Origin: Candidatus Oleincola secundus
Lineage (GTDB): Bacteria; Atribacterota; Phoenicimicrobiia; Phoenicimicrobiales; Stramentimicrobiaceae
Length of the DNA: 16,419 bases
Reading direction: 5' to 3'
Assembly: GCA_018400815.1 (NCBI GenBank)
Contig: JAGYLS010000039.1
Location: 1-16,419, forward strand
A model generated the notes under the pieces. That model saw nothing but the letters and a program-made list of their open reading frames with translations, was not told where the DNA came from and made no database searches. Of this stretch, positions 3,365 to 11,304 are shown in pieces (positions within the stretch are counted from its first letter, which is position 1; every line of letters begins with the position of its first letter). The translations under genes were made by a program, and so were the position numbers.

Positions 3365-4495
3365 TTAAGCGGTTTGGGCTACCGAATTTGACTCTATTGA
3401 AACATTCTCTAAAACAAAGTTAAGGAAATTATCGGCTAACTCCATAGCATCAACTACGGAGCAAGCTATCGAATTATCCTTGGATATATAATGGACATTT
3501 TTACCTGGAAGCATTTTCTCACAAAAAACATCAACAAATTGTCTGTCTTCTTCACATAAAGTTCTTAACCATTTATCGGCAACATCAAATTTATCACTGG
3601 TATAATAATTTTTTCTGTGATCTTTCCTCCAGCCAGCAACACGAAAATCCTGAAGTTCTCTTTTTCTGTCAGCCGAAGCGGTATTCAAAACATCTATTGC
3701 TTTTTTAACAATAGGACAATTTTCCGTCGTGTATAAGATGCCCGACGAAGATAAATTTTTCGATCCTACTATACTACACTTTTTAGAAATAGGAGAAAGA
3801 GAAATTTTTTCGGAAGAAAAAGAACATGAGCGATTACGATCGCTCGTAGTATTTGCGTTTTCTATGTTATTTCTTAGCTTAGTATTAGTATAGTCGGGTA
3901 TCTTATACCCGACGGTCGGTACGTAGAGGGCTAAGCTAGTACCTCTGGAGCACGACGCGTCGGGTATCTTATACCTCACGATTTTATTGTCAATGAAATC
4001 CCTGATATCATCAATGTCTGCGCCTTTTAAGAATTGGTTTTGAACAAAAACACTTTCCCCTTTATGATTTTTTGTTTTAGCTTTTGTAAATTTATTCATT
4101 CCTTCAGCCACATACATGAACAGCACCAAAGGATGATCGAGATTCAACTCATAGGTGTATATTTGCCGATTGTAAGCTAGCCCCCCTCTCCACCTATAAA
4201 CAATTTCCAATTTATCCAAAAGTTCTAAATGATTTTTTATGCTTTTAATATTTATATTGGGAAGCTCCTCATGCAGCTCCACAGCACTTTTATAAAAATG
4301 ATGTTTCTTCTTGTTTTCTCGACATTTTAAATCAAACCAGTATTTCAGTTGATATAAAACAGCGCAAGCATCGGAAGAACTATTTATTTTAAATTTTGGT
4401 TTGATTTGGGTGATATAGGTGTGTAAAAGTTTTATAGTTGCAGTGTTGGTCAGCCGGAAGCCGAAAGCAGCTTCCTCCAAAAAATTAGTGTCCAT
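3365..4495 (-). CDS. Phage replication initiator protein (N-terminal winged HTH, lambda O/RepA-like)
   Basis: 'VLYQLKYW...FYKSAVELHEELPNINIKSIKNHLELLDKLEIV...YNRQIYTYELN' resembles the wHTH of phage initiators; internal iterons; adjacent to DnaB; SD AAAGGA. Confidence 0.8.
   Translation of the reverse strand: MDTNFLEEAAFGFRLTNTATIKLLHTYITQIKPKFKINSSSDACAVLYQLKYWFDLKCRENKKKHHFYKSAVELHEELPNINIKSIKNHLELLDKLEIVYRWRGGLAYNRQIYTYELNLDHPLVLFMYVAEGMNKFTKAKTKNHKGESVFVQNQFLKGADIDDIRDFIDNKIVRYKIPDASCSRGTSLALYVPTVGYKIPDYTNTKLRNNIENANTTSDRNRSCSFSSEKISLSPISKKCSIVGSKNLSSSGILYTTENCPIVKKAIDVLNTASADRKRELQDFRVAGWRKDHRKNYYTSDKFDVADKWLRTLCEEDRQFVDVFCEKMLPGKNVHYISKDNSIACSVVDAMELADNFLNFVLENVSIESNSVAQTA
3726..3979. 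repeat. Putative replication origin: three 21-bp palindromic iterons inside the initiator gene
   Basis: GTCGGGTAT-CTT-ATACCCGAC (3893-3913, perfect 9-bp IR); 3959-3979 direct copy with 2 mismatches; 3726-3746 inverted copy with 2 mismatches; hairpin GAGCGAT-TACG-ATCGCTC (3828-3845); AT-rich stretch ~3858-3892. Confidence 0.75.
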
Positions 4496-8015: not shown

Positions 8016-10058
8016 TTAAATACTATATTTTTTCTCCCAATCCTCCCATCTTTGTTTTAATGAGCGCCTTCCTCTTGATAATTGCCAATGCGCCGGTCTG
8101 TTACCGGAAGACGGCCTATTTGATTTATCGAAGCGCCCTCGTCTTTTGTTGGTATCTGTAGTTTTCATTTTAAGCATTTCTCTTAATGTAACTGGTTTCC
8201 CTTTTTTGTTATAAGTAGCTTTTCTTTGCGAAAGCCGATATACACATCCAGCTATGGCATCGGCAACATCCTTTTCAGAATTAATATCATGGTCTATTTT
8301 GCCGGTAGCCATATCCTGCTTCAGCCCCTTAACTTCACTTTTTATCATTTCATTTTCGGGCAGCCAAAGCCTTGATTCAGATAAAGAAGTTTTCATTTCG
8401 ATATAAGGGTCTGGCTGTTTGTCCACAGATTGCCTTGCGGTGGCTATCCCAACTTTTCTCAACATTTGACTGATAGTTGTGCTGTAAGCAAAATCGGCTG
8501 ACCATGAATCTAAATTTGTCAAATGCTCTTTAAGCGCAAAGAACATCTCCCATATCTTTTCCCTTTTAATTTCACCTTCCAGCGGTGGCACTATTTTTAA
8601 TAACCCAAATATTACATAAATAGGCGCAAAAGCCTCCACTTCCTTTTCAAATTGTTCTTTTTCTTCGTTGAATACATTTTTAGCACTTACAATTTTAGAC
8701 CCCATAGCAGCCCCGATGGCAATACCGGAATTATCTGTATGAAGGGATAAATCGTTATGAGAATGAAACTTTCCATAATTATTAATAGCTTCAATAAAAG
8801 GAATATTAAAAAGACTTTTCAAATTATTTACCTGATTAATATCCACTTCAAATGTGTTGAATATTTGGCTAAACCCATAAAACGCTTCATATTTCTCAAA
8901 GTTTTCAATTAAATAACTTGAGGGTATAAATTTAGAATCTCTTAAAATAGGTTTTCCGGCCACTTCCTGTATAGCTTTAGCTAAATCATCTTCAAAAGTG
9001 TCCAACATTTCAATAGGGATTTCTATAATATCATCGTCCATAGGCCGGGGTTTTTTCTTAAATACCCTTCCCGCACTTAATTCATTAGGAGGCTTCACCC
9101 AAAACTTTTTGCCTGAATATTTATCAGTATCTTTAACCTCCCATAAAGGATAATCGACAACATAAATATAATCTACTTTTTTAGCCTTTTTCTTTCGTGT
9201 TTGGGTAAAATCTTCACTATGATTGGCTGATGATGCCAAATACAACTTTCCCGGCCATTCCCCTGTAGCAAAATTTTCAAATTGGTATTTAATTCTTGCT
9301 TTGATAGCATTGTAATTTTCAGTAGCTTGATCTACCCATTTACCATCTTCTTTGCTTCTTATAGTTTTCATAAAATTGGCTTCATCAATAAAGCCAGAAA
9401 ACACATTTTCTGAAATAGCGGCTGTAGAAGTAGCCGGAACAGGATTAACTTTTATATTATTAGGGAAAACAGCATAATTCTTACCTTTTAATGGAAAATG
9501 GTTATTAAAATAATCTGAAGCCGTAACCATCCCTTTAAATTCTTGGAAGTTTCGTACTGCCTTTATTTCTTTTACAGATTGCATAATAAAAACAATCTCT
9601 GACCCAGGAGCCAACTCATAATGGATTTGAGGGCTATAAAGACAACTTAATTTATAAACATGATAAGCAAAAGCGCAGCAAGCCAAATAAGTTTTCCCTA
9701 TTCTCAGACCCCCTGTCAATACTACTTCATAACAATTATTTTTAGACCCAAAAATATTTATAAGTTCTTCAAGTATTTTAGGCCTTATGGTATTACTGAC
9801 ATTAAGATATTCTCTTCCAAGTAAAAATTCTTCAATATCTACAGGCTGTACTCTGTACCCTGTTTTTAATGCCGCTTGCTGCTTTCCAAATAGCTCTAAA
9901 AAATCAGCTCTTGGTATCTTATCGCCATAAATTTCCTGCATCTTGTAAACTTGCCCAATCATTGCAGTTTTAAATGTATTAGGCAAGTTATATTTAACGG
10001 CTATTTCATTTATATATCTGTTTAAGGTTTCGGCTGATACAAATTTTTTCATAATCAT
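8016..10058 (-). CDS. terL: Terminase large subunit
   Basis: Walker A 'LTGGLRIGKT', Walker B 'GFIDEANF', coupling motif 'LASSA', nuclease 'HNDLS' and 'KIDHDINSEKDVADAIAG'. Native start reassigned to ATG 10058 (or 10052) because the 15 upstream codons lie inside the IS end. Confidence 0.9.
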   Translation of the reverse strand: MIMKKFVSAETLNRYINEIAVKYNLPNTFKTAMIGQVYKMQEIYGDKIPRADFLELFGKQQAALKTGYRVQPVDIEEFLLGREYLNVSNTIRPKILEELINIFGSKNNCYEVVLTGGLRIGKTYLACCAFAYHVYKLSCLYSPQIHYELAPGSEIVFIMQSVKEIKAVRNFQEFKGMVTASDYFNNHFPLKGKNYAVFPNNIKVNPVPATSTAAISENVFSGFIDEANFMKTIRSKEDGKWVDQATENYNAIKARIKYQFENFATGEWPGKLYLASSANHSEDFTQTRKKKAKKVDYIYVVDYPLWEVKDTDKYSGKKFWVKPPNELSAGRVFKKKPRPMDDDIIEIPIEMLDTFEDDLAKAIQEVAGKPILRDSKFIPSSYLIENFEKYEAFYGFSQIFNTFEVDINQVNNLKSLFNIPFIEAINNYGKFHSHNDLSLHTDNSGIAIGAAMGSKIVSAKNVFNEEKEQFEKEVEAFAPIYVIFGLLKIVPPLEGEIKREKIWEMFFALKEHLTNLDSWSADFAYSTTISQMLRKVGIATARQSVDKQPDPYIEMKTSLSESRLWLPENEMIKSEVKGLKQDMATGKIDHDINSEKDVADAIAGCVYRLSQRKATYNKKGKPVTLREMLKMKTTDTNKRRGRFDKSNRPSSGNRPAHWQLSRGRRSLKQRWEDWEKKYSI

Positions 10059-10872
10059 CTGCGAAGAAACCACTATCCCTTTAGGGTAGTGGAGGAATCG
10101 CACCTTCTTTCTATTATTAAATTTTTACGTTTACTTATAATATCTAATTTCTTATAGTTAGCTGATTTATGAATTGTGGTTCCGTCTAATTTTCGTAAAT
10201 CGAAATACCCACTGCTTCTTCTTCCAAAAATAAAACATTCGATATTATCATATTTAACTTTATCAAACAGTCTATATCCTTTGACTATATACGGAGCTTG
10301 ATTGAGTTTCTTTTTACCACCCTTTGTGATATTGGCTTTATGAATTTGTCTATTATGACATCTAACTTTTTTAATATAATACCAATTATTTAATTTTTCG
10401 ACGAGCGGATTGCCGGTTATACATAAAGCATCAATCCTATGAGATTTAGGAAGATTGTTTTTAATCCGGGTGTTCTTGGTGATGTAACCAAATGTCAATT
10501 CTACATATGGCGTTCTTTTAACTACATTCGCTTTACCTTGTTTTAATAGTTTTCTTGCTGTTCGTGGTTTACACGGCATTAACGGTTTTTTGTGTTTGTT
10601 AATAACATAGACTAGCATATAGTCTATCTCCTTTCAGAGTTATTAGCCATCGACAATGTTATAAAGGCTTGTCTTGCAAAGCACACCGTTTCTTACTCTC
10701 AAAACTTTTAATACTTTGCGATAGAGCTACAGACTTGGCTAAACATCCGTAGGTATCATGACCTAAACAACGTAGTTGGAAGTATTTAAGACTCCCAACT
10801 GAGTCTAATCAACCAGGCTTTTTTGGTATTTCTACCTCAAGCTCCGAACCTTTAGGTTCGTGAGTTGTTGAC
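10059..10872 (-). mobile_element. Non-autonomous IS200/IS605-family IscB (ISC/OMEGA) element, internally deleted
   Basis: Starts GTCAAC (10872); subterminal hairpins with identical CCTAAAGG apex at 10842-10864 and 10070-10092; contains omegaRNA and an iscB derivative; no tnpA; 3' flank ATGA. Boundary uncertain by 1 nt. Confidence 0.88.
10073..10618 (-). CDS. iscB: IscB derivative (PLMP/RRXRR N-terminus fused in frame to RuvC-III and C-terminal domain); lacks RuvC-I, bridge helix, RuvC-II and HNH
   Basis: 'MLVYVINKHKKPLMPCKPRTARKLLKQGKANVVKRTP' joins directly to 'YVELTFGYITKNTRIKNNLPKSHRIDALCI...HNRQIHK...GYRLFDKV...FIFGRRSSGYFDLRKLDG'; no GIDxG, RRxRR helix or CxxC/HNH; SD GAAAGGAG. Confidence 0.88.
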   Translation of the reverse strand: MLVYVINKHKKPLMPCKPRTARKLLKQGKANVVKRTPYVELTFGYITKNTRIKNNLPKSHRIDALCITGNPLVEKLNNWYYIKKVRCHNRQIHKANITKGGKKKLNQAPYIVKGYRLFDKVKYDNIECFIFGRRSSGYFDLRKLDGTTIHKSANYKKLDIISKRKNLIIERRCDSSTTLKG

Positions 10873-10892
10873 AAAAGTTTATCCAAAAATCG
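10630..10892 (-). ncRNA. omegaRNA (HEARO-type) scaffold with 5' guide derived from flanking phage DNA
   Basis: Minus strand GTCAAC..hairpin..GCTTG...GTTGATTAGACTCAG...CTACGTT...GGATG..CCAAGTC..GCTCT...AACATTGTCGATG, the conserved HEARO/omegaRNA motif series; guide ~10873-10892 (CGATTTTTGGATAAACTTTT). Confidence 0.85.
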
Positions 10893-11066
10893 TTGACTTA
10901 TTTCGTATTGATTAAAAACCTTGCCGCATAAAGGACACACCCCGCAATCTTCATAGCAAGGTTTATCCCCGAAAAATCCTACAAAATCACTTTTGATTTG
11001 AATATTATACTCCCCACACTCACAAGGTATGTCTGAGTTATAAATAATAAAGCTATTTGTATTCAT
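10809..11066 (-). CDS. Zn-ribbon protein whose last ~20 aa are contributed by the inserted element
   Basis: CECG and CPLCG motifs; native sequence ends at ...FLDKLL (10873); 'STTHEPKGSELEVEIPKKPG' is read from the IS end. Confidence 0.7.
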   Translation of the reverse strand: MNTNSFIIYNSDIPCECGEYNIQIKSDFVGFFGDKPCYEDCGVCPLCGKVFNQYEISQRFLDKLLSTTHEPKGSELEVEIPKKPG

Positions 11067-11067
11067 G

Positions 11068-11304
11068 TCAATTAATATCCTTTTTATCTAAATGTTTGAC
11101 CATTTCAGCATAGTAGGCTGTATGGATTTTTTCTTCCATTTTTAGTACTAATTCGTCTATCATTTTCAGCCCAATTAAATGTGAAAACAGTTTGCATAAT
11201 TGGCTACCATCAAACTCTTTATAAAGCGCATGAGTTAATTCATTACATTTTTTACATTGATTTCCTTCATCAATTTCTTTTCCGCATAAAGTACATTTTG
11301 GCAT
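11068..11304 (-). CDS. Small Zn-finger protein
   Basis: CTLC...CKKC at the N-terminus; SD GGGGAG; tight packing. Confidence 0.7.
   Translation of the reverse strand: MPKCTLCGKEIDEGNQCKKCNELTHALYKEFDGSQLCKLFSHLIGLKMIDELVLKMEEKIHTAYYAEMVKHLDKKDIN

Follow-up and report, generated by a model that had tools for sequence, protein, structure and literature searches.

The locus analysed here raises the question of whether a reading frame that joins the start of IscB to its C-terminal part, next to an intact omegaRNA, encodes a domesticated RNA-guided module or is what a decaying transposon has left behind. The window (the whole stretch of 16,419 nucleotides) is contig C147 of a 2.0-Mb assembly that is 86% complete. 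We found that it is phage DNA, with capsid, head protease, DnaB-like helicase and thymidylate synthase genes that all lie on the minus strand, as do all window features located below. A preliminary description, made from the sequence alone, had offered three options for this mini-iscB: a detoxified relic, an RNA-binding or dominant-negative decoy for host IscBs, or a guide donor loaded in trans by a full-length IscB. Our analysis favours the first of these, in that the element is probably a non-autonomous ISC relic that is turning into a PATE.

An in-frame deletion within iscB

The mini-iscB ORF (10073-10618) is open for 181 codons without internal stops, as had been described, and its Shine–Dalgarno sequence (SD; 10627-10634) is indeed strong, with a duplex energy of -8.7 kcal/mol. 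The Pfam RRXRR/PLMP model (PF14239) matched residues 3-39 only, which correspond to the first 37 of 174 model positions, and this match and the alignment to OgeuIscB placed the PLMP part at residues 1-37 (10508-10618). OgeuIscB (PDB 7xht, 7utn; Kato et al. 2022, PMC9640706) aligned to the ORF through PLMP, RuvC-III, wedge and TAM-interacting (TI) domains, in two separate blocks (residues 2-43 and 41-160, the second being chain residues 320-438). Unlike OgeuIscB, the mini-protein has no RuvC-I, bridge helix, REC linker, RuvC-II or HNH. Alignment to full-length IscB, which had been proposed as a way to map the deletion, gave the same picture: relative to a protein of 416 residues, the mini-protein is kept up to residue 38 and the match resumes at 274, so that a gap of about 235 residues takes out RuvC-I, the bridge helix, RuvC-II and HNH, the motifs of which are absent. 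The junction is the hybrid codon Tyr38 (10505-10507), in agreement with the in-frame joint previously placed at about 10505-10510, and is followed by the RuvC-III helix, wedge and TI domains (residues 39-181; 10076-10504). This C-terminal part reached 81% identity to a full-length IscB over 115 residues, and the whole mini-protein scored 71.8 bits with the NCBIfam model guided_IscB, below the cut-off of 175, compared with 383.1 for a full-length relative. The relatives are too distant for any microhomology at the junction to be fixed.

By its domain content, the mini-protein is neither an IscB nor an IsrB, as the preliminary description had recognized. It has PLMP, RuvC-III and wedge/TI but not the four segments that fall in the gap, and its split RuvC is incomplete through the loss of RuvC-I and RuvC-II, whereas IsrB, also omegaRNA-linked, keeps a split RuvC in the account of PMC11610941. 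In the same account, IshB resembles the mini-protein in its length of about 180 residues and its link to an omegaRNA, but it keeps HNH and has no RuvC; the mini-protein, with RuvC-III and without HNH, is on this basis not an IshB.

The deletion is real, as seen within one study. A 598-nt contig from run X2 (10077-10674) bridges the junction with 0 differences, and no loose end or joint at the junction was among those listed for it. Run X2 is another sample of the same study, so that the support amounts to one study and not two, and run X1, which may be the source of the window, was left out of it. An assembly artefact was rejected as the cause of the junction on the strength of the X2 contig. 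Contigs from run X3 (the sample of X1, depth 5.75) contain small deletions inside the ORF at 10311 and 10367, and two further small deletions outside it at 11127 and 11248; these are likely errors, with real frameshifted variants a possibility.

Judging by the loss of both nuclease centres, the mini-protein cannot cut DNA, which upholds the earlier statement to this effect. The preliminary description had also called guided binding doubtful because of the missing bridge helix, and this is borne out by the published work on OgeuIscB. There, the guide seed is anchored by the bridge helix, which together with the REC linker and RuvC/wedge forms the channel for the heteroduplex, and deletion of the REC linker harms the complex; PLMP, wedge and TI contact peripheral RNA (terminal hairpins and linker) and the TAM (PMC9640706). 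The mini-protein is most likely unable to hold a guide–target duplex, and guided DNA binding is very unlikely; it may bind RNA weakly. In a model built from an 89-row alignment, the TI barrel was confident (pLDDT about 90 for residues 111-160), the junction had a pLDDT below 50, the pTM was 0.44 and the RuvC sheet was gone. A fold search with this model gave no match at E <= 0.001, the best rows being IsrB and IscB. A single-sequence fold (pLDDT 39.7) was not used.

The element and its insertion at a terminase start codon

The ORF lies in a whole non-autonomous ISC element (IS200/IS605 superfamily, IscB) of 820 bp (10053-10872, ends ±2 nt), one end of which is given by the start of the omegaRNA, while the far end was placed by the ends of relatives and by a relative in run X4 whose likeness to the window starts at 10052. 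Compared with the span first given, 10073-10892, the far end lies at 10053 (±2), and 10873-10892 is flank at the guide position; the anatomy first described holds, but the placement at a terminase start codon had been missed. The omegaRNA and both end hairpins had been judged intact, and both judgements stand. The HEARO search that had been suggested returned a full-length scaffold (10639-10872; RF02033 positions 1-211) at 124.8 bits against a cut-off of 83, with the omegaRNAs of relatives scoring 83.7-150.4 bits. The subterminal hairpins at the omegaRNA end (10837-10871; DNA fold z -3.4 / -2.9) and at the far end (10070-10092, containing the ORF stop at 10073-10075) folded with z between -2.0 and -3.4, and 0 to 9 of 200 shuffles were equally stable. 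The element has no terminal inverted repeats and instead has these hairpins at both ends; no flanking direct repeat indicative of target duplication was among those listed.

The guide of an omegaRNA lies 5' of the scaffold (PMC9640706), and in the window this position (10873-10892) is coding DNA of an upstream Cys-rich ORF of 85 residues (10809-11066), the final 20 or so codons of which run into the omegaRNA and for which a homolog search found none. At the other end, the target-adjacent motif ATGAA (10048-10052) is also the terminase start codon. GstIscB has the TAM TTCAT, the other strand of ATGAA (10.1101/2023.03.14.532601), and the ISGst IscB element of Geobacillus stearothermophilus described there, along with its PATE-like derivatives, is similar in that the omegaRNA is bounded by one end and the guide is derived from the flank; unlike the ISGst element, the window element has no nuclease and so no cut-and-copy retention. 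The element also resembles the non-autonomous ISC2 transposons of PMC4810608 in its 5'-GTCA end, its subterminal hairpins, its unduplicated target and its lack of a transposase of its own, with a Y1 transposase elsewhere in the assembly. ISC targets in that work are cut either between N and ATGA or between GT and GA, which leaves the element boundary open by 2 nt. Whereas the corrupted ISC2 copies described there are C-truncated, the iscB of the window is missing about 235 codons, from an original of about 416, with its frame intact. A PATE has no protein gene, whereas the window element still has its 181-codon open ORF with an SD.

We also observed that this placement is usual among relatives. 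ATGAA followed the far end in 15 of 25 distinct relative ends (automatic calls, a few of them misplaced by some bases), and 19 of the 25 were followed by an open frame of at least 50 codons or ran off the locus. One end was uncalled, and the set excluded duplicates, loci with an open end and six irregular ones. Thirteen of 16 full-length relatives had an SD-like sequence immediately next to the omegaRNA end, on its outer side, the 16 being drawn from the 20 relative sources scored for omegaRNA. Taken together, the ATGAA at far ends and the SD-like sequence beyond the omegaRNA end indicate that such elements usually land between SD and ATG. Two of the relatives' loci additionally carry a Twister-P5 ribozyme (L002:6031-6080) and a RAGATH-18 RNA (L045:4348-4413).

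The gene at the insertion site (8016-10052) encodes a phage terminase large subunit-like protein of 678 residues, with which homologs align from residue 2. The label comes through these homologs, 29 of 61 aligned ones matching the terminase large subunit family phrog_2; no direct terminase label for the window protein came from Pfam, PHROGs, NCBIfam or PDB. The family comprises 2804 homologs at E <= 0.001, with poor library coverage, and many of them have long insertions that may be inteins; the ESM Atlas neighbours of the protein are viral clusters carrying PF27249. The best sigma-70-like match of the region (11044-11071, 11/12) is directed at the element and the terminase gene, in a promoter scan in which the number of sites (6, versus 7.2 expected) was not above chance.

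In silico removal of the element shortened the upstream ORF to 65 codons and placed its stop on the terminase ATG, an outcome with a 1-in-3 chance given the motif. The run X4 relative, which comes from another study, has 13 silent and 6 amino-acid differences (pS 0.05) in the covered terminase stretches and matches the window to 10052, followed by at least 202 letters unlike the window and a stop right before the ATG. Run X4 gives almost no cover of 10053-10976, and only the loose end at 10052 was taken as evidence; since the likeness ends there, this relative has no element end at that spot. It differs from the predicted empty allele in that the predicted flank is absent, and the second half of its upstream Cys-rich ORF has diverged (window 10977); either a deletion close by or variability of the upstream gene would account for this. 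Searches through the terminase protein for close relatives of the phage, in which an empty allele might be seen, yielded 0 of 2 candidates in viral contigs and 0 of 50 in metagenome contigs, and the exact empty-site pattern had 0 matches in viral contigs.

Recurrent deletions, their age and other elements in the assembly

The mini-protein cluster has one member, on three contigs, and the Tyr38 junction was in none of the other protein clusters listed. The search for the same junction elsewhere that had been suggested found no copies among 9 viral, 2 genome and 41 metagenome loci, a degenerate junction pattern gave 0 matches in viral contigs, and GenBank phages or plasmids held none (best cover 42%). 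The preliminary description had held that a junction unique to this contig or unsupported by reads, along with neutral evolution and no omegaRNA expression or binding, would point to an ordinary decaying insertion sequence; the junction was indeed in no other listed cluster or viral contig, but the second-sample contig supports it.

Other in-frame deletions of this kind were readily found. Eleven further proteins in which an IscB start is joined to a C-terminal part were present in the best 120 of 755 similar-length matches. Their breakpoints all differ, being kept to residue 40-137 and resuming at 203-292; the nearest, P0094, has a breakpoint a few codons off and is 59% identical. For each of the 12 deleted IscBs, there is a full-length IscB that is nearer to it than any of the other 11. 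In a tree of 47 rows and 115 columns, with 35 representatives of 120 proteins as the full-length set, the deleted/full label needs 8 changes, at least 3 of which are forced by well-supported branches. These proteins were taken from a protein database, which shows open frames only, and some of the 11 may be misassemblies, with one lineage present in complete Mesotoga genomes. The differing breakpoints and separate origins indicate that in-frame loss of the nuclease core is a recurrent accident. A 267-residue in-frame deleted IscB occurs in several Mesotoga genomes (P0046, P0393, P0394, P0400) and shows as many as 18 amino-acid differences, some of which affect conserved positions. Among the papers listed in literature searches, no title or abstract opening described an in-frame PLMP-to-RuvC-III deletion or a domesticated nuclease-dead IscB; earlier surveys may catalogue such fragments.

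At columns that are at least 95% conserved, the mini-protein deviates at 3 of 46; in distance-matched full-length proteins, this many deviations occurred in 2 of 39 and 0 of 40. This excess is a weak hint of decay, and conservative Tyr/Phe swaps make up two of the three changes. Relative to two full-length loci (L022 and L023), the mini-ORF has dS of 1.38 and 1.49 and dN of 0.18 and 0.17, values that are saturated and reflect pre-deletion history; with the nearest full-length DNA at dS 1.4-1.5, no date can be assigned to the deletion. An insertion more recent than the divergence of the X4 relative would imply neutral change of at most about 2-3%. The frame would then have stayed free of stops with a probability of 0.38-0.68 and, with indels assumed at 10% of substitutions, would have survived with one of 0.11-0.23; the prior for an in-frame deletion is 1 in 3. 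With these no-stop chances at the likely age, the open frame needs no protein function, and selection remains compatible with it.

No intact IscB was found in the 86%-complete assembly, and one full-length query found 0 IscBs in 85 other genomes of the phylum, which suggests another host as the probable source of the element, or else a wrong binning of the phage. An intact IscB may be present in the true host of the phage or in the missing part of the assembly. The 12-nt guide seed had four other matches in the assembly, none followed by ATGA; the host of the phage may differ.

Two later-stage elements lie on contig C35 of the same assembly, both followed by ATAAA. One is a shattered IscB pseudogene (G000:C35:7640-9294; L012, L016) with an omegaRNA of 100.6 bits, which has 11 stops in its RRXRR match and belongs to a distant IscB subfamily. 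The other is an ORF-less, PATE-like element (G000:C35:32290-32650; L015) with an omegaRNA of 122.8 bits. The window element's far-end hairpin has a 17-nt core in common with both, and in the ORF-less element this core is present at both ends. Because the shattered and ORF-less elements keep their omegaRNAs, an intact omegaRNA is no proof of protein function. The pseudogene was rejected as the parent of the mini-ORF, as it is about 30-48% identical to full-length relatives, compared with 76-77% for the mini-ORF in its C-terminal part. Just downstream of it (C35:9770-10500) is a tandem repeat of low complexity, each unit about 18 codons long, which may be an artefact of assembly or reads.

Judging by its ORFs, C35 also looks like phage DNA. 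The ORF at 614-1894 is similar to the replication-initiator-like protein of the window (3365-4495), and its pieces in run X1 have a depth of 22-30 versus 26 for the window; the two are possibly the same or sister phages. Elsewhere in the assembly, Y1 transposase is represented by 4 PF01797 matches, the best at C133, where an intact-looking IS200 element (C133:17100-17640; L017) with a TnpA of 100.5 bits is a candidate helper transposase. The loops of its end hairpins resemble those of IscB elements.

A probable decaying element and the alternatives

These observations fit best with the detoxified relic: the singleton cluster, the recurrence of such deletions, the retained ends and a guide that is flank DNA all point this way. 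A non-autonomous ISC2 (IscB) transposon would have inserted where such elements usually do, at an ATGA that opens a gene, in this case the phage terminase gene. A single internal deletion would later have taken out the two nuclease centres together with the segments that bind the guide, with the frame kept by chance. We infer that the shortened element has no function, can no longer re-home into vacated sites and persists passively; because both ends are intact, a Y1 transposase acting in trans could still excise or move it. Against a relic, the ORF has no stop or frameshift and has kept its strong SD and an omegaRNA that matches at full score.

The main alternative, which we think rather unlikely, is that the frame has been selected in cis rather than for its protein, with terminase translation depending on reading of the mini-ORF. 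Insertion would have cut the terminase off from its upstream signal; ribosomes would load at the iscB SD, translate as far as the stop within the end hairpin, melt this hairpin and restart at an overlapping in-frame GTG, or at ATGs 14 and 20 nt further on, and only frame-keeping deletions would leave terminase expression intact. Consistent with this, the terminase ATG lacks its own SD (-2.2 kcal/mol, versus -8.7 for the mini-ORF), the 105 nt around the terminase start fold at -23.6 kcal/mol, and the three genes upstream are tightly packed, with gaps of 1 nt and 10 nt, like a coupled operon. A split between SD and ATG is moreover routine, as the same 13 of 16 full-length relatives leave their SD-like sequence across the element. 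The mini-ORF stop overlaps by one base with a GTG in the terminase frame (10071-10073), but this overlap is inherited from the element end and had a 1-in-3 chance of matching the frame. Selection in cis is, in addition, compatible with a relic as the explanation of the protein itself.

It is highly improbable that a nuclease-less PLMP–wedge–TI protein has been domesticated to bind omegaRNA or TAM DNA, and either counters intact IscBs, as a decoy or inhibitor, or has a regulatory role at the terminase start. The retained domains are those which, in OgeuIscB, touch the terminal hairpins and linker of the omegaRNA as well as the TAM (PMC9640706), the TI barrel is modelled at a pLDDT of about 90, and the ORF, SD and RNA are intact; there is also a precedent in TldR, a nuclease-less derivative of TnpB that was domesticated in phages together with its RNA (PMC10705468). 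However, TldRs as presented in that work form conserved clades with active-site decay, have promoter-aimed guides and, in the fliC-linked clade, have lost the transposon ends. None of this applies here: the ends are kept, no conserved clade shares the inactivation, and the other deletions have other breakpoints and origins. The modelled protein, with its RuvC sheet gone, its poor junction and global scores and its empty fold search, likewise argues against domestication, as do the lack of a guide target in the assembly and of any partner IscB found. The same absence of an intact IscB, in the assembly and in 85 other genomes of the phylum, and of an ATGA-flanked guide match leaves both the decoy and the trans guide donor of the preliminary description without backing. 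In the latter case, for which the chance is equally slim, the omegaRNA would guide an intact host IscB to cut phage copies without the element, and the ORF would be irrelevant. The scaffold is intact, the guide and ATGAA match the vacated site by construction, and trans use has been proposed for PATE omegaRNAs with TnpB (Meers et al., 10.1101/2023.03.14.532601) and for standalone omegaRNAs in a review (PMC11610941). No empty-site allele was found among run contigs or in viral contigs, however, and guide donation would be a known behaviour.

Each of these alternatives would have consequences of its own. Frame retention in cis, if true, would explain how elements between the SD and ATG of essential genes are tolerated. 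If the protein binds omegaRNA by itself, it would mark out a minimal core of the Cas9 ancestor that suffices for RNA binding, and domestication would make it an IscB counterpart of TldR that arose from one domain-scale deletion. As a relic, which is the explanation we prefer, the mini-iscB element would represent a middle stage in the decay of an IscB element, with the later stages, shattered and ORF-less, in the same assembly. In-frame nuclease-less IscB ORFs would then be common by-products of this decay and, alone, no sign of domestication.
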